Shown one piece after another: positions 4,400 to 20,577 of a stretch of 64,000 nt of DNA. Location of the stretch: contig NC_090350.1 of the NCBI RefSeq assembly GCF_035084215.1, positions 11,842,001 through 11,906,000 of the forward strand, written 5' to 3'. Positions within the stretch are counted from its first letter, which is position 1. Each line of letters begins with the position of its first letter. Source of the DNA: Heptranchias perlo. Its lineage: Eukaryota. Below the pieces are notes generated by a model. It did no database searches. It was not told where the DNA came from and saw nothing but the letters and a program-made list of their open reading frames with translations. The position numbers and the translations under genes were made by a program.

Positions 4400-6663
4400 A
4401 TAGGGATGGTAGCCAATACCATATGTAGAGAATGTGCCTCGTGGATAGCACGTTTCAGGAGGTGGTCACCCCGCGTCTGAAGAGGGTGCAGGCAGAGAGG
4501 GACTGGGTGACTGCCAGACAGACAAGGAGGACCAGGCAGGTAGTGCACGAGTCCCCTGAGTGCATCTCTCTCTCTAACTAGTAATAATGGTGAGGGAGAG
4601 GGTTCCTCTGCGAAGTGCAGCTAGAGCCAAGACCGTAGCACCATGGGTGGCTCAGCTCTACGGGGGCGGGAGGAGAAAGGTCAGGAGAGCAATAGTAATA
4701 GGGGATACTATAGTTAGGGGAGCAGACAGGCGTTTCTGAGACCGCAGATGTGATTCCAGGATGGTATATTGCCCCCTGGTGCCAGGGTAAAGGATGTCAC
4801 TGAACGGCTGCAGTATATTCTGGAGGGGGAGGGTGAACAGCCAGAGGTCGTGGTCCATATCGGTACCGACGACATAGGTAGAAAGAGGAATGAAGCCCTG
4901 CAAGCAGATTTTAAGGAGCAGGACCTCCAAAGGTAGTAATCTCCGGATTACTCCCGGTGCCACGTGCTAGTGAGTATAGAAATAGGAGGATGGAGCAAAT
5001 GAATGCATGACTGGCAAGATGGTGCAGGAGGGCAGGCATTAGATTACTGGGGCATTGGGACCAGTTCTGGGGGAGGTGAGACCTGTACAGGCTGGATGGT
5101 TGCACCTCAACGGAGCTGGGACCAATGTCCTCACGGGGAGGTTTGCTAGTGCTGTGGGGGGAGGGGGGGTTTAAACTAATTTGGCAGGGAGATGGGCACC
5201 AGGATGTAGCCATTGGAAAGGAGAAACAAGGGACACAAAGGATCGGGAGCAAAAGATAGCACCAGAGCAAGAAATAGTACAGTATTAGGTGGGGTCAGAC
5301 TGAGAGAATACAAGAAAGCCTAAGACTGGTTTGCAGTGCATGTGTGTAAACGCAGGAGGCATGGTAAACAAGGTTGATGAGCTGCAGGCGCAAATAGCCA
5401 CATGGGAACACAATGTTGTGGCGATAACTGAGACCTGGCTCAAAAAAGGGCAGGATTGGGTAGTAAATATTCCTGGATACAAGGTGCTCAGGAAAGATAG
5501 GGAAGGGAAGAAAGGAGGTGGGGAGGTGGCAGTACTGATTTAAGGAGAATATTGCAGTGCTGAAGAGAGAGGATGTCCTGGAGGGGTCTATTTGGTTAGA
5601 GTAAAGAAACAACAGAGGTGCCATTACATTACTGGGTGTATCCTGTAGGTCACCAGCTAGTGGGAAGGAGATAGAGGAGCAAATTTGCAGGGAAATTAGA
5701 GTGGAGCAAAAGCTATAGAGTGGTGATAACGGGGGACTTCAACTATCCTAATATAGACTAGGATGATAATATAAGGGGCAAAGAGGGGGAGGAATTTTTG
5801 AAATGTGTTCAGGATAACTTTCTTGACCAGTATGTTTCCAGCCCAACGAGGAAGGAGGCATTGCTGGACTTGGTTCTAGGGAATGAGGCGGGCCAAGTGG
5901 AGCAAGTGTCAGTGGGAAAACATTTAGGCAACAGCGATCATAGTATCACAAGGTTTAGAATAGCTATGGAAAAGGCCACTTACCACTCTAAAGTAAAAAT
6001 ACTCAATTGGAGGAGGGCCAATTTCAATGGGATGAGAACAGATCTGGCCCGGGTAAATAGGAATCAAAGATTGGCAGGCAAAACTGTAATTGAACAGAGC
6101 GCGGCCTTCAAAGAGGAGATGGTTCGGGTACAGTCTAGGTACATTCCCACGAGGGAGAAAGGTAGAGCAACTAAAGACAGAGCTTCCTGGATGACAAAAG
6201 AGAGCAGAGGTGAAGCAGAAAAAAGGGGCGTATGACAGATGTCAGGTTGATAATACAAATGAGAACCAGGCAGAATATAGAAAGTTCAGAGGCGAAGTGA
6301 AAAAGGAAATAAGAGGGCCAGAGAGTATTAGAATAGACTGGTGGCCAACATAAAAGGGAATCCAAAAGACTTCCGTAGGCATGTAAACAGTAAACGGGAA
6401 GTAAGAGGTAGGGTGGGGCCGATTAGGGACCATAAAGGAGATCTACTCATGGAGGCAGAGGGCATGGCCGAGATACTAAATGAGTACTTTGCATCTGTCT
6501 TTACCAAGGAAGAAGATGCTGCCATAGTCTCAGTGAAGCAAGATATAGTTGAGATAGTGGATGGGCTAAAAATTGATAAAGAAGAGATACTAGAAAGGCT
6601 AGCTGTACTTAAAATAGATGCATCCCGCACGGGATGCATCCTAGGTTGCTGAGGGATGTAAGG
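4400..6663 (+). mobile_element. CR1 LINE, 5' part (ORF1 SGNH esterase, ORF2 AP-endonuclease, start of RT); degraded and interrupted by the provirus
   Basis: IVIGDTIVRGADRRF...VVVHIGTDDIG (ORF1 esterase). CVNAGGMVNKVDEL...VAITETWL, GDFNYP, LLDLVL, LGNSDH (endonuclease). Ends at GMHPRLLRDVR just before TG at 6664. Many stops and frameshifts. Confidence 0.92.
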
Positions 6664-8783
6664 TGTTCTGTTCCCTTCCGCCTTACACCGGTTCTTGGAC
6701 CTCGGAATTACAAGAACAAAATTGCAGGCAACATACAGGCTTTGGCTCAACCCAAACTTGTTAGTTTATTAGACCAACAAAACCCCAGTACAAACCCTTC
6801 TATGATTTGCCTGGAACTTACAATCACCCATGCGGCTAGTCGTTACCAATGCTGATCGTAGGCCTGGACCTGGAATTTTTATTTCCAAAAATATACTATA
6901 TTCATAAAATTTGCAGCAATACATACAATAGTTGTCATATCACATTCCAAACGTACACAATACAGATTATACAATTTGCAGGTTACATAAAGTACAGTTC
7001 AATGAACACATTGTACATAATTACAGTTCATGACACTGTAGGGTGCCTCATTGCATTACAGTCAATACCGATTATTGATTACAGATTCATTACAGGTACA
7101 TTACATCAATTTGAATTTTACGTTCTGCTCGAGGGGTTTTTCCCTGATTGCAGCCCCTCGGTATACAATGGCGGGAAGGCTCTAAACGGTTGCCTTTCTC
7201 CACAGAGCCTTTGCGGTGGCCACACCCGTCCTCAGTGCGTCCCTGAACACGTAGTCCTGGACCTTGGAATGTGCCAGTCTGCAGCGCTCTGTCAAGGACA
7301 GCTCCTTGCACTGGAAGACCAGCAAGTTTCGGGCGTGGGCAAGAACCTAGTCATCAGGTGCGAGGTGCTCTCGGTGTTCCTGTACATGGCACAGGTCTGG
7401 CCCATACCTCGCTCCTGCGCCGCGACAGTCACCCGAGCCGTCTTCCACTTTATCTGGAGATCAAAAATGGACCGTGTCCACAGGGACACGATGTACAAAT
7501 CTCCAGAGAAAGGGGGGAAAGGCGTGCCCAACATGGTCCTCATCCTGATGGCCACTTTCGTGTGTGGCTGCATCAAGCTTTGCGTGGACCCTTGGTACGC
7601 AAACACAAAGCGTCACTACGTGCTGGGGTTCTACTTGTCCCCGGTGTTGCGAAGGATGGACCTGGCCACGCTGCCACGGAACGCTCCGTCCAGTTGGACC
7701 GTTCCGCCTCACCTGTCCTTCGTCGAAAAGTTTATGCAAAAAAACACCTTTGACCACAAGGCGATCAGTAAGTGGTTCGCACGTAACGTCCTCGAGAACC
7801 TGCGGGAAAAGGAGATGATGGATCCTGTTGGTTGGTTCCCCGAGCAGACTGTCAATGTCATTTGGCAGAACGCCTCATCGCCAGAGCTTTCAAACAAGCA
7901 CCAAGACATAGCTTGGCTGGTGGTGAGAAGGGCCCTTCCCGTCAGATCCTTTATGCACTCCCGGACTCTCAGCGCCACCGCGCGCTGTCCCGAGAAGGCT
8001 GCGGTGGAGACGAAACCGTCACCCATCTCCTTCTGGAATGTGCCTTTGCAAAGAAAGCCTGGAGAGAGATGTTGTGGTATCTGACCAGGTTCGTCCCGAG
8101 CAGTTCCGTAACACAGGACTCTGTGCTCTACAGGCTGTTCCCAGGGACGCACACAGAGACTGACATGAACTGCTGCTGGAAGACCATCAACTCGGTGAAA
8201 GACGCCCTTTGGTCGGCCTGGACCTGGAATTGGCCAGTTTCCATCCTTCTTCCCTTGACTGCAGCCTCCTCGTGTTGATGTTGTACCTTCTTATAGTGTT
8301 CCAGTCATGCAAGCCCCCACTCGGGCCTCAACTGTGGTTTCAGCTATCAATCTGTTGGATTGCTTGACATTCACACGTCTTCATCTGGGCATCTCGGTGA
8401 TTCAAAACTCCTTAGTTGTGCAGAGCTGTGAGGTCGAGAGACAACTTCTTATCTCCTCCCCTGCTACCTGCACAGCATCAGGACAATGCGATATTCCTCA
8501 CTGTGATGAGCCCTTGGCTCACAGCATTGTTTAGGTCTGAAAGGCTTTCCGTTCTTGTCCGAGACTGAGCATAGCTCAGAGGCTCAGTTTGATTATACAT
8601 CTCAATATTAATGTGTCTTCGCCAGGGGACCATTGTTTGATGTAAGTGAGTCTCCAAAACTGATCATGGACTGGAGCCTCTTTGACTGGCACCTGGGGTT
8701 AACTGTTTCATATCTCACAGCCTGTTTCATGTCTTGCAGTTTTACAGTGTTTTTACAGTATTTTCCATATTTGTAGTCTTACA
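6664..8783 (-). repeat. 3' LTR of the provirus (~770 bp after removing the Tx1 insert)
   Basis: Minus strand begins TGTAAGACT right after the PPT and ends GAACA at 6664. TATAA at ~8291-8295, AATAAA at 6765-6770, short direct repeats (ctgtttcat) in U3. Confidence 0.8.
6878..8214. mobile_element. 5'-truncated, 5'-inverted Tx1 (L1-clade) LINE inserted in the LTR R region
   Basis: Direct repeat ggcctggacctggaatt at 6861-6877 and 8215-8231. Plus-strand ORF2 piece GKNLVIRCE...zf-RVT...CCWKTINSVKDALWSA (~7335-8218) is continued on the minus strand by RNLLVFQCKELS...KATV* and an A-rich 3' end at ~6878. Confidence 0.92.
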
Positions 8784-8794
8784 GTCCCTCCTTT
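8784..8794 (-). promoter_or_regulatory. Polypurine tract of the provirus
   Basis: Minus strand AAAGGAGGGAC directly precedes the TGTAAG LTR start. Confidence 0.75.
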
Positions 8795-8885
8795 AATATC
8801 TCGTATACACTAGAGATATTACTTTTGATGCTTCTCCTCCACTCTCAGGTGCATTGCCGGTTTCAGCCAAATCTTAAATTTTTTA

Positions 8886-9350
8886 TGTAAGGAGTCTTAA
8901 AACACCAGGTTATAGTCCAACAGCTTTATTTGAAATCACAAGCTTTCGGAGGCTTCCTCCTTCGTCAGGTGAAGTGTAGGATTCCATAAAGGTGCAGCAT
9001 ATATAGTCAGAGAACAATGCCTGGTGATTACAGATAATCTTTCCAACTGCCCGTTATCAAAGCAATCAAAGGAGTTGAATGGTGTTCAGACAGAGAAATG
9101 TCTGTCTGAACACCATTCAACTCCTTTGATTGCTTTGATAACGGGCAGTTGGAAAGATTATCTGTAATCACCAGGCATTGTTCTCTGACTATATATGCTG
9201 CACCTTTATGGAATCCTACACTTCACTTGACGAAGGAGGAAGCCTCCGAAAGCTTGTGATTTCAAATAAAGCTGTTGGACTATAACCTGGTGTTGTAAGA
9301 CTCCTTACATTTGTCCAACCCAGTCTATAACCGGCATCTCCACATCATGG
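8886..9350. mobile_element. Palindromic Penelope-like element remnant (inverted pseudo-LTRs) carrying hammerhead-type motifs
   Basis: Arms 8885-9094 and 9101-9310 are near-perfect reverse complements around a 6-nt spacer. Flanked by cttaaatttttta at 8873-8885 and 9351-9363. Contains CTGACGA-A-GGAGG-AAG-CCTCC-GAAA-GCTT. Confidence 0.85.
8937..8971 (-). ncRNA. Minimal hammerhead ribozyme-like motif (Penelope type)
   Basis: cac-CTGACGA-a-ggagg(aag)cctcc-GAAA-gct-t-gtg: core boxes, stem II, palindromic AGCT stem III and cac/gtg stem I. The copy at 9224-9258 has TTGACGA. Confidence 0.6.
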
Positions 9351-9360
9351 CTTAAATTTT

Positions 9361-11686
9361 TTAATCACACCAATACATTTGGTCTAACCATCCCAGATCC
9401 CCTTTTAACAATCTTACACGTTTTTCCTTCTTAGCCTTTCCTTTTTGTTTACAAAGCAGTATCAATAAATACAACACAATCAATTGCACAATCACTAATA
9501 CATGCGATGCGATTTGAATTCAATATTGAACCCACTATCCCACCAAGAAGGGGTAACTATTTCTTCAATTTCACCCCTCGCTTTATTATTCTGTTGCTGT
9601 AGCGTATAGTAATGTTTTTGGGAAAGTTCTACTTCCTTTACCAGTTTAGTCAAGTGTTCTGGTAATGGCGGGATATAGAATCATAGAATCATAGAAGTTA
9701 CAACATGGAAACAGGCCCTTCGGCCCAACATGTCCATATCATATCCAAAACGCGATATGTTCGGCAAACTACCATTAATTGTGATATTGATTGGGGTGTA
9801 ATCCGAGATGGAGATTATCCTTTCCTGTGCTACCCAGATCTCCACCTGGGGTCTGAAGCAAAAGGTAGAATCTTGAACTGGGCACCAGGTATCATTGGGT
9901 ACCCGATATTGGCTTTCACTAGTTGTGACACAGTAAGTTCCATTACCCTTTTACGCAACCTGGGGCGGGACATGGCCCTGAGCCATTACTTCCATGGTAC
10001 AGTTGATAGGCTGTCCACCCCCAAATTTGAACCCACATACTGGCTGATTGAAAAGATTCAGGTAGCATGGGCACAACGCCACATGTGTACCTCGTCCCTG
10101 ACATCCGTCCAGATTGGTGCCGGTTATAGAGTTTCCCATTTTAACCACATACGGAGGGGTCTTATGATGCGTTACATGTACCCCATTCCGAATAACACCG
10201 ACTTTCTCTATCCGGTATACCAGCGCGGGTCCTTGTGACTGATCCATCACCGGCATCCTAAGGGCTATTCCCATTACCGTTTGTTTGTTATGGCCACAGT
10301 TGACCGGGACTGGGTGTGCTTCGGAGGCCCACCGTAACTGACATGGATTCATACGGTTGTTTTATGCACTTATAGCTCTTAGGTGTCCGTTGCCAATCCA
10401 TGATGGTACGCGGCCTTGCTTTAAATCCTCCAGATTAGCGCGCCCCTCGTTTAACAAACAGGCGCCGTACATGACACACACGTCATTTCAGGCGGCCTGA
10501 TCAGATGCATTTCGGTCCTCATTAATTTATTTATTGTCTGGGCGTGAGTTTCCAACTCAGCTATTATTTCTTCAAGTGAATTGTCATCACTTGGCCTTCC
10601 TGCAACTCTTGTCCCTCAATATTATTACCCTTCCCCAGTATTTCCTTTTGCTGGTCCTTTAAGGTATTCACCTGCATTTGCAGCTGAGTATTATTCATAC
10701 TGTTGACCAGTGACCTGGGTGACTGATTTTTACCGGTTTATATAAATCTTGCCAACTCTCGTCCCCATAGTCTTTCTCATAAAATTGCAGGAACATCTCC
10801 TTTCGCAGTTTCTCATACAACCTCACCGTTTCTGGTGAGCACCACCTGGGGAACTGTAACTCTGTTAAATTGAGAATGATCGAGGCTACCTCGTAATGCA
10901 CACCGTGATACAGCACTTTCCCTGTTGGAATCAACACCATCCCATTTCTAGGTCCGGGTGTCGTTATGGGACACTTAACCTCTATATCCCGAGTCTTTGG
11001 GGTTTTTGGTGGGGACTTTAATTCGTGCGCGACCAGTTCGGTAGCATTGATTATCTCTGGAGGATCGGCGACCACGCAAGAGTCAATACTCTGAGTCCAA
11101 TTCATTCCTGACCCGGAGTCTTGCTATTGTCATTTAAAAGCAATGGTGAACCCTCCTTGACATTTATGCCTCAACCCAACCACACACACATAAACTCCTT
11201 GCTCCCTCTTCCACCATTTGTCCCAAAACGATTTTACCCCTTCCTTAGTCGGGTCTGTTTGAGTTATTACCCAGTTTTTCCCGATCCGTGGATGCGTCAC
11301 CTTTCTTTTCGTCTTTCCTTCGTAACCACCACCACCAACCCATGTAGGTGCTCCCTTGGCATTCTAGACAAACCTGTCTACCCTCCTTCACCTGTACCTT
11401 GCTGACTGTGATATTTACTTTTGGACAGGACACCGATACTTCCTTAATTTTGTACCCGGTTTGACCTGAGTAACTTGGTGGAATTTGACCCTAGCCAGCC
11501 TGGCCAATTCCCATCGTGGGAGTATGTATCCATACCATTGTTACCTCATGTCGTCCCCCACTTAATTACAGTGGGACCGATTCCTCCCATACGCCCATAA
11601 ACGAGAGACATCTCAATGTCCCCCTGGCTCCCCTGCTCTGCTCCAATTTGGATCACCAACACGTTCAGCCACAGTGTCCACTTCAT
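9361..11686 (-). pseudogene. Retroviral env (signal peptide, Ig-like segment, heptad repeat, Cys-rich ectodomain, TM); disrupted
   Basis: MKWTLWLNVLVIQIGA signal-like start at 11686 after the splice acceptor tttatttttcttttgtAG (11712). Heptad SLVNSMNNTQLQMQVNTLKDQQKEIL; NLEDLKQGRVPSWI; Cys-rich YRIEKVG...GCQG...CP...CG...NCTME...GNGTYCVTT; TM IASHVLVIVQLIVLYLLILLC followed by a basic tail. Confidence 0.8.
9678..9736 (-). mobile_element. CR1 3'-tail fragment inserted in env
   Basis: (atagaatc)n tail plus acaacatggaaacaggcccttcggcccaacatgtccat, nearly identical to 30885-30945. It interrupts the env reading FGYD-IPPLPE. Confidence 0.8.
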
Positions 11687-11810
11687 CTTGTGTCTTTGGT
11701 TTGACTCGCTTCTACAAAAGAAAAATAAAGTACAAAGCACTGCTCTGTGAGGGGTCTTCCCTTCACAGGTTCGACTAAAGTTATTCACATATTTACATAG
11801 TACGGGTTAA

Positions 11811-12479
11811 TCACCGCTTTCTTTTTCCTTTCCCTCGAGGTTTGGGCTGCTTGGGGCCTAGGGGTGATGTAGGAGGAGGCGTCCAGGGCACCCTAGGCCG
11901 AGGTATCCGACTACTCCTTCTCACCGCCCCTCCCCCTGAGTTATCCTCATCATCCCACAACATGGGAGGAAGGCTTGCACTGATCAAACTCATGATCGTT
12001 CCCTGGGCTTTAGTTTGTTTTGTTCTCCTCTCTTTATAGAGCTTACACTGGTTAATATGGGACCATTTTACCCGTTTCGGCAGTTGTACCGCATATACCA
12101 CGGGACTTGCCTTATCCACAATACGGTACGGCCCTTTATACAATGGTTCGAATGCTTCTATTCTCTCGTAATTTCTAATCATGATTTGGTCCCCTACTTT
12201 CCATTCCTGCGCTTTCAGTGGTTCCAACAGCATTTTATTCTTTTGGTTCTGTTTTCCCATGTTATTAACTGCCTCCCAGTGCAGCTTCCTTAAAGTATCA
12301 TGCAGATCCCTCACAAGCCTGTCTCCGGTGACCTCCTTAGTCTGCGTTTCTGAGAGGATCGGCACCAGCTCAAGTCGGGTCCTCATTGACCTCCCTGTCA
12401 TCAACTCATGTGGGGAATGTCCCGTACTTTTAGAGAGACTGGCCCTGATGTTCATTAGGACTAGGGGCAGGACCTCATC
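11811..12479 (-). pseudogene. Integrase C-terminal half (GPY/F module plus basic tail)
   Basis: DEVLPLVLMNIRAS...TGHSPHELMTGR...KVGDQIMIR...PLYKGPYRIV...WSHINQCK. Confidence 0.88.
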
Positions 12480-13157
12480 CTACTTCACCAAGGAGTTTAT
12501 CGCAGTTCGCAAATCCTTTTCTGCTTCTCGGGGAAAATTATACTGTTTCTGAGGCCGTGACATTGGATCCCCATCTACCCTCACCTCTACCCCTGTCACC
12601 CTTCCACAATCATGACCGTGAGTAGCGAACACGGTGTGGTTATGCCGTACATTCGTTCGATACCTCGCCGGGATGCTATCGACCAATTGTTCCAGGTCAT
12701 AGCTCCCCTTCGGTTTCATCGTGTAGGCACTGCCTTTAACCTTTTCATCTTTGGGAATGACTAAAATCTCCCCTGGCTTGTCCGAATTAGCTGCCCCCCC
12801 ATAGGCAATTATTTTTCATATCTACAATCACGTGATGGGCCAACATGTAATCGGCTCCAAGAAGTCCCGAGCTGGGTTCTTCCCATTTCATAAGCACACA
12901 TTCCCATTTGGTGACAACAGGTCCTACTTCTATAGTCAAGGGTATCAATACCGCCCCAGCCTGTTCATTACCTGTAAAACCTGTCAATTTAAACAGGACC
13001 CCGCTCGACCAAGGAGAAGTGGTGGGGTTGGGAGAGTGAACCACCATGCTCAACTAGATAACTTCCCCAAGTGGTCCCTACTTTAATATTGACACACGGT
13101 CTGCCCTACTCATCATAGGTCAGTGGGCACAGATATTCTGGCTGTGCACGGCTTAGT
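12480..13157 (-). pseudogene. Retroviral protease and RT N-terminus
   Basis: GRPCVNIKVG...YLV[catalytic DTG missing]SMVVHS...LTGFTG...GLLGADYM (retropepsin). FATHGHDCG...RPQKQYNFPREA...INSLVK (RT start). Confidence 0.82.
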
Positions 13158-13713
13158 CATTGTGGGAGTATAGATTCACCAGATCCCTCCTTACTTACTG
13201 CAGTATCCAGTTTTCGTTGATCCCTACACATAACCTGCTGTAATGTGGCCACTAAGAGTTTTACTGGATCTTCTGCCTTCTCTTGCTTTGTCTCTACCAC
13301 CCATGGTTTTGACCCTCCAAGACCCTCGTATCCTGGTTTCCCTCCTTTCGGGAACCTACACTCCTTATTCCCATTTTCCCACAGTTAAAACACGCTTGGG
13401 ATCTGCCTGCATTACCCCCCTCTTGTCTCCATTCCTTTTTACCTCCCACATTCCCTCTGACTTCGTGCACCTTCCCTTTTTGTTTATTCTCTTCCCCTTT
13501 GATTTAAAAGCCAAAGTAAGCTTTCTTAGCCCGCCCGCCTCTGTATTATCATCTTCCTCAGGGTCAAACCATGACTCGGCTACTGCCCTGATCCACGGCA
13601 AACTGTTGGACACTACAGTCCTCAGCCAATGATTCCTAGAAGCTCCTAATAACTGCCAACATACTAGATTTCCTCCAGTCGCTGTCACGTATACCGGCCA
13701 CAATCTATCCGCA
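13158..13713 (-). pseudogene. gag C-terminal part (capsid CTD, damaged CCHC knuckle)
   Basis: ADRLWPVY... then CFNCGKMG[His lost with a frameshift]NKEC. The frame after the knuckle stays open to ...ESILPQ-TGA. Confidence 0.78.
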
Positions 13714-14519
13714 GCATGGATACGAAATTGGCTAAGTGACAGGAATCACAGAGTAGTGGTGAACGGTTATTCTTCGGACTGGAGGGAGGTGTACAGTGGT
13801 GTTCCCCAGGGGTCGGTGCTGGGACCACTGCTTTTCTTGATATATATTAATGACTTGGACTTGGAAGTACAGGGCACAATTTCAAAATTTGCAGATGACT
13901 CAAAACTTGGGAGGGTAGTGAACAATGAGGAGGCTAGTGATAGAATTCAAGAGGATATAGACAGGCTGGTGACATGGGCGCACACGTGGCAGGTGAAATT
14001 TAACGCAGAAAAATGCGAAGTGATGAATTTCAGAAGGAAAAATGGGGAGAGGCAATATAAACTAAAGGACACAATTCTAAAAGGGGTAAAGGAACAGAGA
14101 GATCTGGGGGTATATGTACACAAATCATTGAAAGTGGCAGGGCAGGTTGAGAAAGTGTTAAAAAAGCATACGGGATTCTGGGCTTTATAAATAGAGGCTC
14201 AGAGTACAGAAGTAAGGAAGTCACGATGAACCTTTATAAAACACTGGTTCGGCCACAACTGAAGAATTGTGTCCAGTTCTGGGCACCATACTTTATTAAA
14301 GATGTGAAGGCCGTAGAGAGAGTGCAGAAGAGATTTACTAGAATGATTCCAGGGACGAGGGACTTTAGTTACATGGAGACTGGAGAAGCTGGGGTTGTTC
14401 TCCTTGGAACAAAGAAGGTTGCGAGGTGATTTGATAGAGGTATTCAAAATCATGAAGGGCTAGACAGAGTAGATAGAGAGAAACTGTTCCCATTAGCGGA
14501 AAGATCAAGAATCAGAGGC
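13711..14519 (+). mobile_element. CR1 LINE, 3' part of ORF2 RT (continuation of the element at 4400-6663)
   Basis: AAWIRNWLSDR...SGVPQGSVLGPLLFLIYINDL...KFADDSKL...LYKTLVRPQL. Confidence 0.92.
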
Positions 14520-17500: not shown

Positions 17501-18352
17501 TCAATTGAAAGACTCAGTAGCCGAGCAACCAACAGGAAGCGTTCTTCTATGGACTGGTGTGGCTGTTGCCATTTATTTTTTAAAGAAAGTATCTTTTGGA
17601 TATACTGCAACCCTGGAACTGTAATCCAGATTTAACTTTGAAATTCAGCCCTCTCCTGGGATTAGCTTGCAGAATCTCGCCAAAGAAGGAACTCGTCAGT
17701 ATGCTGACACATTATGACCGTTTGATAGATTAGTCCACATTTTTTTTTAAAATTAGGAATGGTGATATCAGGAACAGTCCAATATAAACTATTCTGCTTT
17801 TAACTTCTGTCTCTCAACGCTCCCAAGTGAAAATGCCCTGACTACTTTGAACCGAGGAAATCCCTTTGCCTAGGCAAAAGAAATTGACTTGGTATAGGTT
17901 CATGGGATTGGGGATAACATATTAACATGGATTGAGGATTGGAAAACAGACAGAAAACAGTGAATAGGAATAAACAGGTCATTTTCGGGTTGGCAGGTTG
18001 TAACAAGTGGGGTGCTGCAAGGATCAGTGCTTGGGCCTCAACTGTTTACAATCTATATCAATGACTTAGATGAGAGGACCGAGTTTAATGTATCCAAGTT
18101 TGCTGACTATACAAAGCTAGGTGAAAAAGTAAGCTGTGAGTGTTAATTGTATCCATGTGATTTATATCAATTAGTGTTAATTGTATTCAGGTGGTGTGGG
18201 TCAATTGGGAACTCTTGTATCCATTTATGAGAGAGCTGATCTAGGGTGTGGGCTGTGTGTTGTGTTGAGCTCTGTGAATAAAGGATTGGAAGCAACTGAA
18301 GACGAGGCTCTAGTATTCTATCCTTCGCCACCGGGCTATCCAGTTTATTACA

Positions 18353-18370
18353 TGTTAGCAGAGGATGGTT
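18353..18370 (+). promoter_or_regulatory. Primer binding site complementary to initiator tRNA-Met
   Basis: tgttagcagaggatggtt matches TGGTAGCAGAGGATGGTT (complement of the vertebrate tRNA-iMet 3' end) at 17/18, directly after the 5' LTR. Confidence 0.85.
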
Positions 18371-20577
18371 GCCTAAAGGTGGAGGTTGGAAACTACGATT
18401 TTCTTTTGGACTTGAAACAAAACTTGAAAGCCTGGTGGCCATTGTGGAAAATGGCAGAAAGTAAGTTTAAATTGTTGAGATACGGTTTCCCTCCGATGTT
18501 CTCGGAGTTTGAACCGTATGACCAGTGGAAGAATGAGGTTAATATGTAGACACGGGTTACATCTCTGCCAAAGAAAAGGGGTTGTCGCTTCCTGAACGAA
18601 GTAAAATCAGAAGTAAGGTATTTTCTAAGATGGATGCAGATCTTTTGGATAATGTTGAAGGTTTTACCTTTCTAATAGGATTTTTGCATCAAATCTACAA
18701 GAAAGATTACCTGTTAAATGTCTATGAGGCCTGGTCAGCATTTGATAAATTTTGGAAAACAGACGGTCATTCAATGGAAAAGTATATCATGGACTTTAAC
18801 AAATTGTACAAAAGGTTGACAAAGTTCCAATTGGGAATCCCTGGATCGATACTAGCGTTTAAATTACTAGATTGTGCTAAGGTGTCTGATATGGACAGGC
18901 AACTGGTTCTAACTGGCGTCCAGTTCTCAGAAAAGGATACTTTTTTGGATCAAATGTCTGCTGCCTTAAAGAATCCTGGGGAAACAGTCATTCCCTTCAG
19001 CTTTCATGGAACAAATGGGGCCTTCCGCTGCGACGCAAAGAATGGAAGATCGATGGTTACCAGGTTTCAAAATGTTCCAGATACTAAAGGCAGGCGCCAG
19101 TCCAGGTTTCAAAATTTTCAAGAGACCAGACATAGGTATCGATATGACAGCCAGATTGATGATGAAAGCGGGTACTGCAAGTCCAGTTTTAGCACCAGAA
19201 GACAAAATTGGGACAGCAATAATGGGCAAGTGAATCCCAGGGATAACCAAGGCAAAATCAGTGGATGCTTTAGATGTGACTAAGTATCATTATGAGGTGA
19301 ATTGTCCAGAGTGAAGACGCAGAGTCTTTGAAATGACACATGAAGAAAGTAGTTCTGAGGAAGAGGATAAAGATAATGAGGAACAGGATGAAGATAATGA
19401 TAACTATGAACAGATTATACCAGTCATAAGGAGTTTTAATCCTGTGATGAATGTATTAGTTGCGGATTCCTTTAATTGTGCGGCATTAGTGCATGTACTA
19501 CAACTGTATGCGGGGTACATTGGTTAAAACGTTATCTTGATTCACTAAGTTATGAGGATCGACACAAGGTTAAGGAATATAAAAAATCTACATGTTTTAG
19601 GTTTGGAGATGACGACACCTTGAGGTTACTCAAGAGAGTGGTAATTCCATGTAAGATAACTGGAGTAAGCCTTTTTATAAGTACAGATGTAGTCTCCAGT
19701 GAGATACCTATGCTTTTGTGTAAAGTTTCCATGAAAATGACAAAAATGAAACTTGACATGGAACATGATGAGGCAATCATTATTGGGAAATCGTTTGATT
19801 TGCAGTTTACCCAGTCAGGGCATTATTGTATCCCCTTAATAAAACCTGATGTTTCTCATCAGTGTATTGGGCAAGTATTAATGGGATCAGGCGCTAAGGA
19901 TAAGAGAGGGAAAAAAACAAATTGTCTTAAAGTTACATAGACAATTTGCCCACCCAACTTGTCCACTTTTAAAGATCCTGCTAAAAGATACAGGTGTAGT
20001 TGACGAGGAATATACGAGGTTCATAGAAGAGATTAGTGAGAACTGAAATCAGTAAGATGTATAGATGGATGCCCCCACGTCCTATTGTAAGTGTTCCATT
20101 AGCATGTGACTTTAACGAGGATTTTGCCATGGATCTAAAGGTATGGTACAAAGACAGAAATGTTTTCAAATTACATTTTAATGATATGGCTATGAGATTT
20201 AGTATTTCTACACTAATATATAGTAAGGAAAGGAAGGTTATTCTAGATAAAATTATGGAAAAATGGATAGGGACTGGACTTGACACCAGCAAGTTTTTGA
20301 CCGATTAATGGAAGTGAATTCGCTAATGTGGAGTTCAGAGATATGTGTGAGAATATGAATATAATTGTCATGAATTCAGCAACTGAGAGCCCTTTTAGCA
20401 ATGGTCTTTGCGAAAGGAATCATCAAGGATGAGGTATCATAAAATTCGTAGAGCACTGAGGCATCGTATTAGACCATATGAGACAGAGTTCAATTCAGGA
20501 GATTTGGTATACTATAAAAGAGAGGGTCATGGGGAATGGAAAGGCCCTGGTAAGGTAATAGGTCGTGATGGTAAGAC

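Follow-up and report, generated by a model that had tools for sequence, protein, structure and literature searches.

Does the envelope gene of a shark endogenous retrovirus (ERV) open with an immunoglobulin (Ig) domain? The question is raised by a degenerate env gene that runs on the minus strand, from position 11686 to about 9360, in a 64,000-nt stretch of the Heptranchias perlo genome (GCF_035084215.1, NC_090350.1, 11,842,001–11,906,000; this whole stretch is called the window, and all coordinates are counted within it). A preliminary description of this DNA had proposed an Ig domain joined to an F-like envelope glycoprotein (Env). This combination stands in that both parts lie in one open frame in other copies and the fold has moderate support, whereas the frame path and the second Ig repeat that had been suggested do not. 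We propose that the N-terminal part of this env gene holds a broken copy of a conserved module, that this module is a divergent Ig-superfamily (I/V-set-like) domain and that it likely serves as the attachment head of an F-type Env. For this reading as a whole we estimate a probability of roughly 55%. The module is a real, conserved head on the F-type retroviral envelope of cartilaginous fish, and probably one of the Ig superfamily. The window element itself lies on the minus strand and is a dead provirus with internal losses: its pol is deleted, its env carries frameshifts and stops, and the furin-site region is gone.

The module and the fusion body share one open reading frame

Both peptides quoted in the preliminary description are found on the minus strand, with cysteine codons at 11361–11359 and 11186–11184 and a tryptophan run at 11337–11326, and the two stops ahead of the surface subunit frame are located at 11132 and 11126. 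The way these peptides had been connected was incorrect. A frameshift had been placed at the (tgg)n run, where none of 22 sister copies is out of phase with the window; the phase relative to the window is altered over 11318–11235 in 19 of the 22. Alignment of the sister copies locates the frame-shifting indels of the window copy near 11473 and near 11253. Because the break lies near 11253 and not at (tgg)n, the middle peptide given earlier, EGKTKRKVTHPRIGKNWVITQ, is read in the wrong frame. In natural copies, the first frame runs on past WWWW to the second cysteine, and relatives at 40–48% identity also keep this frame beyond WWWW.

A genome search with 11000–11700 found 29 matches. Of these, 23 (window included) are nearly full-length, at 77–100% identity, and the 20 closest copies have a mean pairwise identity of 91.4%. 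The phase between the cysteine positions is kept in 14 of these 23 copies, and five are free of stops there. Intact copies join both cysteine motifs in one frame, and the Ig-like and F-like parts share one open frame in other copies. L005 is open from its Met through the module, while L006 is open over 325 residues, from ahead of the module through an RRKR furin site. A hydrophobic leader stands in frame with the module in the natural copy L005 and in sister families. The cysteine pair described previously is thus confirmed in a single frame, but its most frequent spacing is 61 codons (8 of 23 copies) and not about 58. The wrong frame path of the preliminary description could have meant that the motif arose by chance from the joining of two frames. 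This explanation is refuted because natural open frames span both cysteines; natural copies and relatives in several species hold the pair in one frame and under purifying selection.

A truncated second Ig repeat had also been suspected upstream of the module. The peptide on which it was based mixes frames, VYGRMG being in the coding frame and SVPL..EVTMVW off-frame. The upstream (pre-Ig) segment is itself conserved, with nonsynonymous divergence (dN) well under synonymous divergence (dS) between families; its profile did not match the I-set or V-set domains of the host (hhalign probability 0.5–0.7), and at the level of this profile comparison a second Ig repeat is ruled out. Residues 22–74 of the relative P0007, taken alone, weakly matched the F-G strands of antibody heavy chains (E 0.012–1.1), a match that a 17-sequence profile did not reproduce.

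The module is conserved between families and species

Module searches of the Heptranchias perlo genome detected at least 150 matches and at least six module-bearing families. Of 26 loci examined, 16 have the module, the G-x-Y-x-C motif and a furin motif within a single stretch free of stops, and env open frames in sister families reach 790–830 aa. Using the L006 frame as query, phmmer retrieved 14 matches from 1.84 billion representative proteins. Relatives of the module at 39–49% identity occur in Rhinoraja longicauda, Pristiophorus japonicus and Rhincodon typus, and share the reading frame of L005 and L006. A search for longer fused forms with P0001 as query gave none at E 0.001, which is weak evidence.

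Between families, the module aligned over 102 codons without gaps in every pair tested, with dN of 0.15–0.58 and dS from 0.67 to saturated. For families B and C, we obtained dN 0.21, dS 1.61 and dN/dS 0.13 in the module, and dN 0.17, dS 1.15 and dN/dS 0.15 in the F2 part of the fusion body; for families B and D, the corresponding values were 0.15, 0.71 and 0.21 in the module and 0.14, 0.60 and 0.23 in the F2 part. Purifying selection acts on the module to a degree comparable to that on the fusion core. Inside the window's own family dN/dS is closer to 1 (0.6–0.8), as expected from decay after insertion.

The families have the layout of retroviruses. Protease, reverse transcriptase (RT), tether, RNase H and integrase are all present in L046, and L047 has long terminal repeats (LTRs) that enclose gag, a deleted pol and env. 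Over 1029 nt these LTRs share 98.6% identity, which indicates that one family, at least, is young. Together with the 23 near-full matches of the window family, L046 and L047 document an LTR-gag-pro-pol-env-LTR plan with dispersed copies.

Two observations concern possible env products. L074–L077 and L087 form a near-identical family, several members of which are on small contigs, and their env frame stops at one and the same place shortly past the furin site, in four of the five at about 384 residues from Met. The predicted product would be soluble and consist of head plus F2; the loci are probably segmental duplicates of a single broken copy. Separately, the env of a sister family is covered by contigs from four runs, three of them only guessed to be RNA, whose joints lack clear splice signals. 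At L035:2430-3349 and 1809-2236, high-depth contigs from two runs of one sample (guessed RNA) omit the greater part of the head as well as portions of the body. One of their joints starts next to the likely env splice acceptor; as the ends are not canonical, a deleted derivative is equally likely.

The module is predicted to adopt an Ig-like fold

In an alignment of 27 sequences, the nearly invariant columns are the B-strand Cys, the C-strand Trp-Leu, and the Gly and Cys of G-x-Y-x-C, with both cysteines and this Gly conserved at 90% or more. The modal cysteine spacing of 61 codons falls within the 55–75 residues of the Ig superfamily, and the invariant Trp-Leu, followed by R/Q-K, lies 11 residues past the B-strand Cys, where Ig domains have 10–15. 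The module has four further conserved cysteines beyond the Ig pair, and other disulfide pairings are possible.

Pfam Ig_3 (78 positions) is mostly spanned in at least 11 of 20 module-bearing pieces, with E values of 0.0025–0.58. The two window frame pieces gave no Ig hit; in relatives, Ig_3 appears below the Pfam cut-off. ESM features of residues 50–160 match Ig clusters at 0.90–0.92, and nine of the ten highest-ranking named hits belong to one clan; among shuffled proteins, 4–10 of 100 reach 0.9. AlphaFold models the head of P0007 as all-beta (predicted local distance difference test, pLDDT, 65; predicted template modelling score, pTM, 0.64) and the isolated module of L020 as nine strands in the order A-A'-B-C-C'-D-E-F-G (pLDDT 61, pTM 0.52). 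When the P0007 model was compared with known structures by VIA-align, nearly all of the 50 rows listed were Ig-superfamily or antibody chains (Z 4.9–5.9, root-mean-square deviation 2.3–4.1, 74–97 residues aligned). For the L020 module, TREM2, embigin, obscurin and NKp44 (Z 6.1–6.5) follow after the four best rows. The module profile scored 24.8 against 28 host I-set domains, compared to 11.1 for the reversed profile and a maximum of 15.8 in 60 column shuffles. Against 27 host V-set domains it scored 21.0 (shuffled maximum 17.7, probability 7%). A sequence search of the PDB with the module of one family found only Robo1 Ig domains, at E 0.074–0.37.

Several results argue against an Ig domain. 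The Ig_3 cut-off was never reached (best score 18.7 bits versus 30), and Ig_3 is not among the matches listed for 9 of the 20 module-bearing pieces. Confidence in both AlphaFold models is modest. The predicted beta-sandwich agrees with the preliminary description, but Foldseek searches of the PDB and BFVD with both models gave nothing below E 0.001, and neither model reached a VIA Z score of 8. The top four VIA rows of the L020 module are Ig-like sandwiches outside the Ig superfamily, namely phage ORF48 (Z 7.6), EhICP2 (7.0), chagasin (6.7) and a phage baseplate protein (6.6). In the hhalign comparison with host I-set domains only 24 columns are aligned (A-A'-B strands, probability 34%), and a PDB search with the module alignment profile returned no Ig chain. 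Finally, no host donor gene was found among the 14 protein matches, of which the sole non-viral one is a repetitive teleost Ig protein (hhalign 1.4%); in the genome searches for the module, the listed matches (at least 150) were taken up by viral copies. With no donor gene found and very low identity to host Ig domains, the term "host-like" used previously is not retained.

These points could mean that the beta-sandwich of the module originated in viruses and that its Cys/Trp/G-x-Y-x-C pattern merely converged on the Ig signature. Every profile match is indeed under its cut-off, and the best VIA rows of the L020 module are non-superfamily proteins at 1–15% identity. However, Ig_3 is aligned from end to end in independent families, the order of the strands and the spacing of the motifs are in agreement, and 60 of 60 shuffles score below the A-A'-B segment; we consider convergence unlikely. 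The Ig-like interpretation is preferred because a number of weak signals, in part independent of one another, point the same way. The support for the fold, though moderate, is consistent. We regard an Ig-like beta-sandwich as very probable, and true descent from the Ig superfamily as likely, at a somewhat lower level.

A predicted F-type body carries different heads

The body behind the module is predicted to be an F-type fusogen resembling the Env of lokiretroviruses. In a sister family, its ESM features match Baculo_F, Gypsy env and Fusion_gly F0 clusters at 0.91–0.93, with 189–196 shared features; the body thus has features like those of Ty3/gypsy errantivirus Env, baculovirus F and paramyxo- and pneumovirus F0 (PF12259, PF07253, PF00523). 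Against this assignment, the body gave no direct sequence match to Pfam PF00523 or to the PDB.

We compared the shark env with 8 of the 23 lokiretrovirus Env entries, one of them N-terminally incomplete, in the supplement of PMC7947760, a source covered here in part. Like the shark env, lokiretrovirus Env has a signal peptide, an RXKR site, a heptad region and a transmembrane (TM) helix. Body motifs match by eye (PGP-x-x-G-x-V-L, F-N-x-G-x-S/T-x-V-N-S and G-x-I/V-P; PMC7947760), as do Y-R-x-x-N-V-G and N-L-x-x-C (PMC7947760). The difference is at the N-terminus, where the shark env has a head and the eight entries compared have none (PMC7947760). Six of the eight open at PGP-x-x-G-I-V-L within about 10 residues of the leader; a seventh reaches this motif after a longer N-terminal read-in, and the eighth is the incomplete fragment (PMC7947760). 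In module-bearing env, by comparison, about 190 residues and a Pro/Thr-rich stalk precede the PGP-motif body.

The same F-type body is found with other Cys-rich heads in P0011 and P0014 (Mustelus, Pristiophorus) and in L150 and L152 (Heptranchias perlo), and a Pro/Thr-rich stretch also stands ahead of the body in families with other heads. When these heads are compared with the module, they align at the C-x-x-C register, but the scores, 17.0 for L150/L152 and 16.2 for P0011/P0014, are inside the range reached by shuffles (maxima 21.3 and 16.8). A C-x-x-C motif without any Pfam match characterizes the alternative heads of L150:1694-3574, L152:1389-2039, P0011, P0012 and P0014. Another family (L030, L031, L049, L148, L149 and L153) has a distant RT, placed on a long branch, and an F-type body; its head region is deleted at 6 of 6 loci and pol abuts env.

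Putative role of the module in attachment

Paramyxoviruses attach to cells by means of a protein separate from F. In the shark env, signal peptide, module, Pro/Thr-rich stalk, furin site and fusion body would be produced from the one open frame seen in younger sister families. After furin cleavage, the module would remain on the surface (N-terminal) product and stay linked to the F2-like part. It may then bind a cell-surface molecule and bring the F-type trimer to the target membrane, and by analogy would do in cis what the separate attachment protein does for paramyxovirus F. Position in the protein and the exchange of heads among sister lineages lead us to favour putative receptor binding over immune mimicry, two roles suggested in the preliminary description.

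The degree of conservation weighs against an attachment role. Receptor-binding regions of many retroviruses are variable, while the module equals the fusion core in conservation, so a structural role also fits. The Ig-like module could cap or stabilise the pre-fusion trimer, or aid folding, with receptor binding located elsewhere. Its conservation equals that of the F2 part, with 102 gap-free codons between families, and the extra conserved cysteines besides the Ig pair would suit such a job. On the other hand, sister lineages bear other heads on the body, and lokiretrovirus Env, in the entries compared, has the same body and no head (PMC7947760). Since heads are exchanged behind a flexible Pro/Thr-rich stalk, an exchangeable attachment part fits better than an integral cap, and we regard the structural role as rather improbable.

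Alternatively, the module may be an immune decoy, mimicking a host Ig-superfamily ligand and acting on leukocyte receptors rather than in entry. Its fold neighbours include TREM, CD300, CD8 and NKp44, as well as herpes-, adeno- and poxvirus Ig proteins, and a crocodilian ERV has captured nectin3 (PMC4299795, in the part covered). A mimic would be expected to retain recognisable similarity to its model, yet no close host counterpart was found among the 14 matches, the repetitive teleost Ig protein being the only non-viral one. We rate a decoy as about as improbable as convergence of the fold, and attachment remains the role that we prefer. A discrete head that is swapped between lineages and kept across sharks and skates offers a small soluble domain for direct study.

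Ig-type modules in other viral envelopes

Herpes simplex virus glycoprotein D (gD) and other viral Ig-fold proteins also present an Ig-type sandwich on a virion surface protein, and gD binds entry receptors. These are separate proteins of large DNA viruses and not domains of a fusogen. Viral Ig proteins do occur among the BFVD matches of the module model, although weakly (E 0.002 and above).

The nearest precedent is CrocERV31, in which nectin3 stands in place of env (PMC4299795). According to the part of this paper covered here, the captured nectin3 is under purifying selection and an infection role was suggested (Chong et al. 2014, PMC4299795). Both elements thus carry an Ig-superfamily module under purifying selection on an ERV. 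In CrocERV31, env has given way to a host gene that can be recognised (about 76% identical; PMC4299795). The shark env, by contrast, has one strongly diverged domain, which is fused in frame to the front of a complete fusion body and for which no donor could be identified.

No Ig domain is described in such an Env in the literature covered, which includes few subscription papers. This applies to the covered parts of PMC12440569, PMC10435555 and PMC3758190. Immunoglobulin is never mentioned in the portions of the text and supplement of PMC7947760 that were covered; likewise, those of a study on F-type envelopes (10.1101/2023.10.26.564294) mention neither Ig domains nor sharks, and those of 10.1101/2021.11.23.469661 concern gamma-type Env only. 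How the single-gene F-type envelopes of fish retroviruses find their cells is not addressed in the literature covered.

The RT may place the element near snakehead retrovirus

The RT is about equally near to those of murine leukaemia virus and foamy virus, and the Ty3 RT is more distant. The nearest named Pol matches are Xenopus and Latimeria elements, the best being Xenopus P0018. Three families whose RT was compared form one clade (100/100) in a tree that holds neither a lokiretrovirus nor a snakehead retrovirus (SnRV) reference. The motifs LDISNGFWSI, QQYTWT-x-LPQGFH and QYVDD also occur in the SnRV row of the alignment by Wang and Han, and identity by hand count over about 260 columns is about 38% to SnRV and about 33% to Loki-Lch. 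By eye, the palm motifs are SnRV-like and the thumb region more lokiretrovirus-like. In the palm, the shark element reads W-T-C-L-P-Q-G-F-H, compared to W-N-R-C-P-F-G-Y in the lokiretrovirus rows of PMC7947760. A first assignment to the lokiretroviruses was not adopted, as these palm motifs differ. L046 has RT_RNaseH_2 and RNase_H in one frame; this dual RNase H is not diagnostic of lokiretroviruses because it is common to all retroviruses.

In the covered part of their paper, Wang and Han (2021, PMC7947760) report lokiretroviruses in none of three chondrichthyan genomes, and SnRV-related ERVs are known in cartilaginous fish, as elephant-shark CmiERV lineage I (Han 2015, PMC4422223, seen in part). 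The likeness to SnRV rests on the RT; in the portions of PMC4422223 and PMC12193657 covered, neither an Ig head nor an F-type Env is described for SnRV and SnRV-related ERVs. The F-like Env is presented as a lokiretrovirus trait, absent from canonical retroviruses, in the part covered of Wang and Han (2022, PMC9040795). If our RT placement is true, an F-type Env exists in a lineage near snakehead retrovirus, contrary to that part of PMC9040795.

The Pol match P0018 (Xenopus tropicalis, UniRef) has, at its end (residues about 569–760), a hydrophobic leader and an Ig-like segment. The latter matches Ig_3 (E 0.062), antibody chains (E 0.006–0.014) and I-set (44% over 68 columns), and profile comparison detected no similarity between it and the shark module. 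P0018 may represent another env with an Ig head, or the gene model may have attached an exon of the host; in view of the latter, we treat it as a lead only.

F-type fusogens normally depend on a separate attachment protein. We tentatively suggest, as a possibility that we rate well below the attachment role itself, that a snakehead-like branch of canonical retroviruses, and not the lokiretroviruses, has used an F-type chassis with exchangeable heads. One of these heads would be a captured Ig adhesion domain that binds host cells and was fixed before the split of sharks and skates, and the frog element with related pol may bear another Ig head that was acquired separately.

Three sister copies contain tandem amplifications of short RT segments, at L051:6463-10000, L043:3246-3605 (40-nt unit) and L053:4260-5230.

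Layout of the window provirus

The features of the window element are collected in Table 1. Compared to sister copies, a large deletion in pol at 12487/12486 has fused the start of RT to the C-terminal part of integrase, and the furin-site region, present at that place in sister copies, is lost at about 10714. A long interspersed nuclear element (LINE) fragment at about 13717–14494 interrupts gag.

Table 1. Features of the provirus in the Heptranchias perlo window
Feature	Position	Strand	Basis or remark
env start codon and likely signal peptide	11630..11686	-	Met at 11686
Pre-Ig segment, conserved (YGC...HxGxWPGWLGSNS)	11428..11629	-	Alignments; stop near 11548, frameshift near 11473
Ig-like module, predicted, about 100 residues	11133..11427	-	Frame, conserved columns, Pfam Ig_3, ESM, models, profile test
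Module landmarks: A-strand Cys; B-strand Cys; C-strand Trp run	11427; 11361; 11337-11326	-	
Module landmark: F-strand G-x-Y-x-C	11186	-	Window copy frameshifted near 11253
Linker with conserved Cys and Pro/Thr-rich stalk, from module to fusion body	10974..11132	-	Stops at 11132 and 11126 in this copy
F2-like part of fusion body	10715..10973	-	Opens with C-P-x-x-T-x-G-P-x-N-G-x-V-L motif
F1-like part: heptad region, Cys-rich region, TM helix (about 9510-9451), short tail	9363..10714	-	Several breaks in this copy
Integrase C-terminal part	11811..12486	-	Pfam Integrase_p58_C and SH3_Tf2-1
gag end with CCHC knuckle, protease, first RT residues, all broken	12487..13713	-	
Likely 3' LTR, split by unrelated insert of about 1.3 kb (6876-8211)	6654..8884	-	Matches both ends of L042, L052 and L053

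Between env and the LTR, at 8885–9310, there is a 210-nt inverted repeat whose arms are 99% complementary and separated by 6 nt; its ends resemble short repeats at other loci. Elsewhere in the window, 18181–19940 contains broken frames, a C-x-x-C knuckle and a protease-like stretch, flanked by a 121-nt direct repeat (18214 and 21093, 2879 nt apart), and is probably another LTR-type element.

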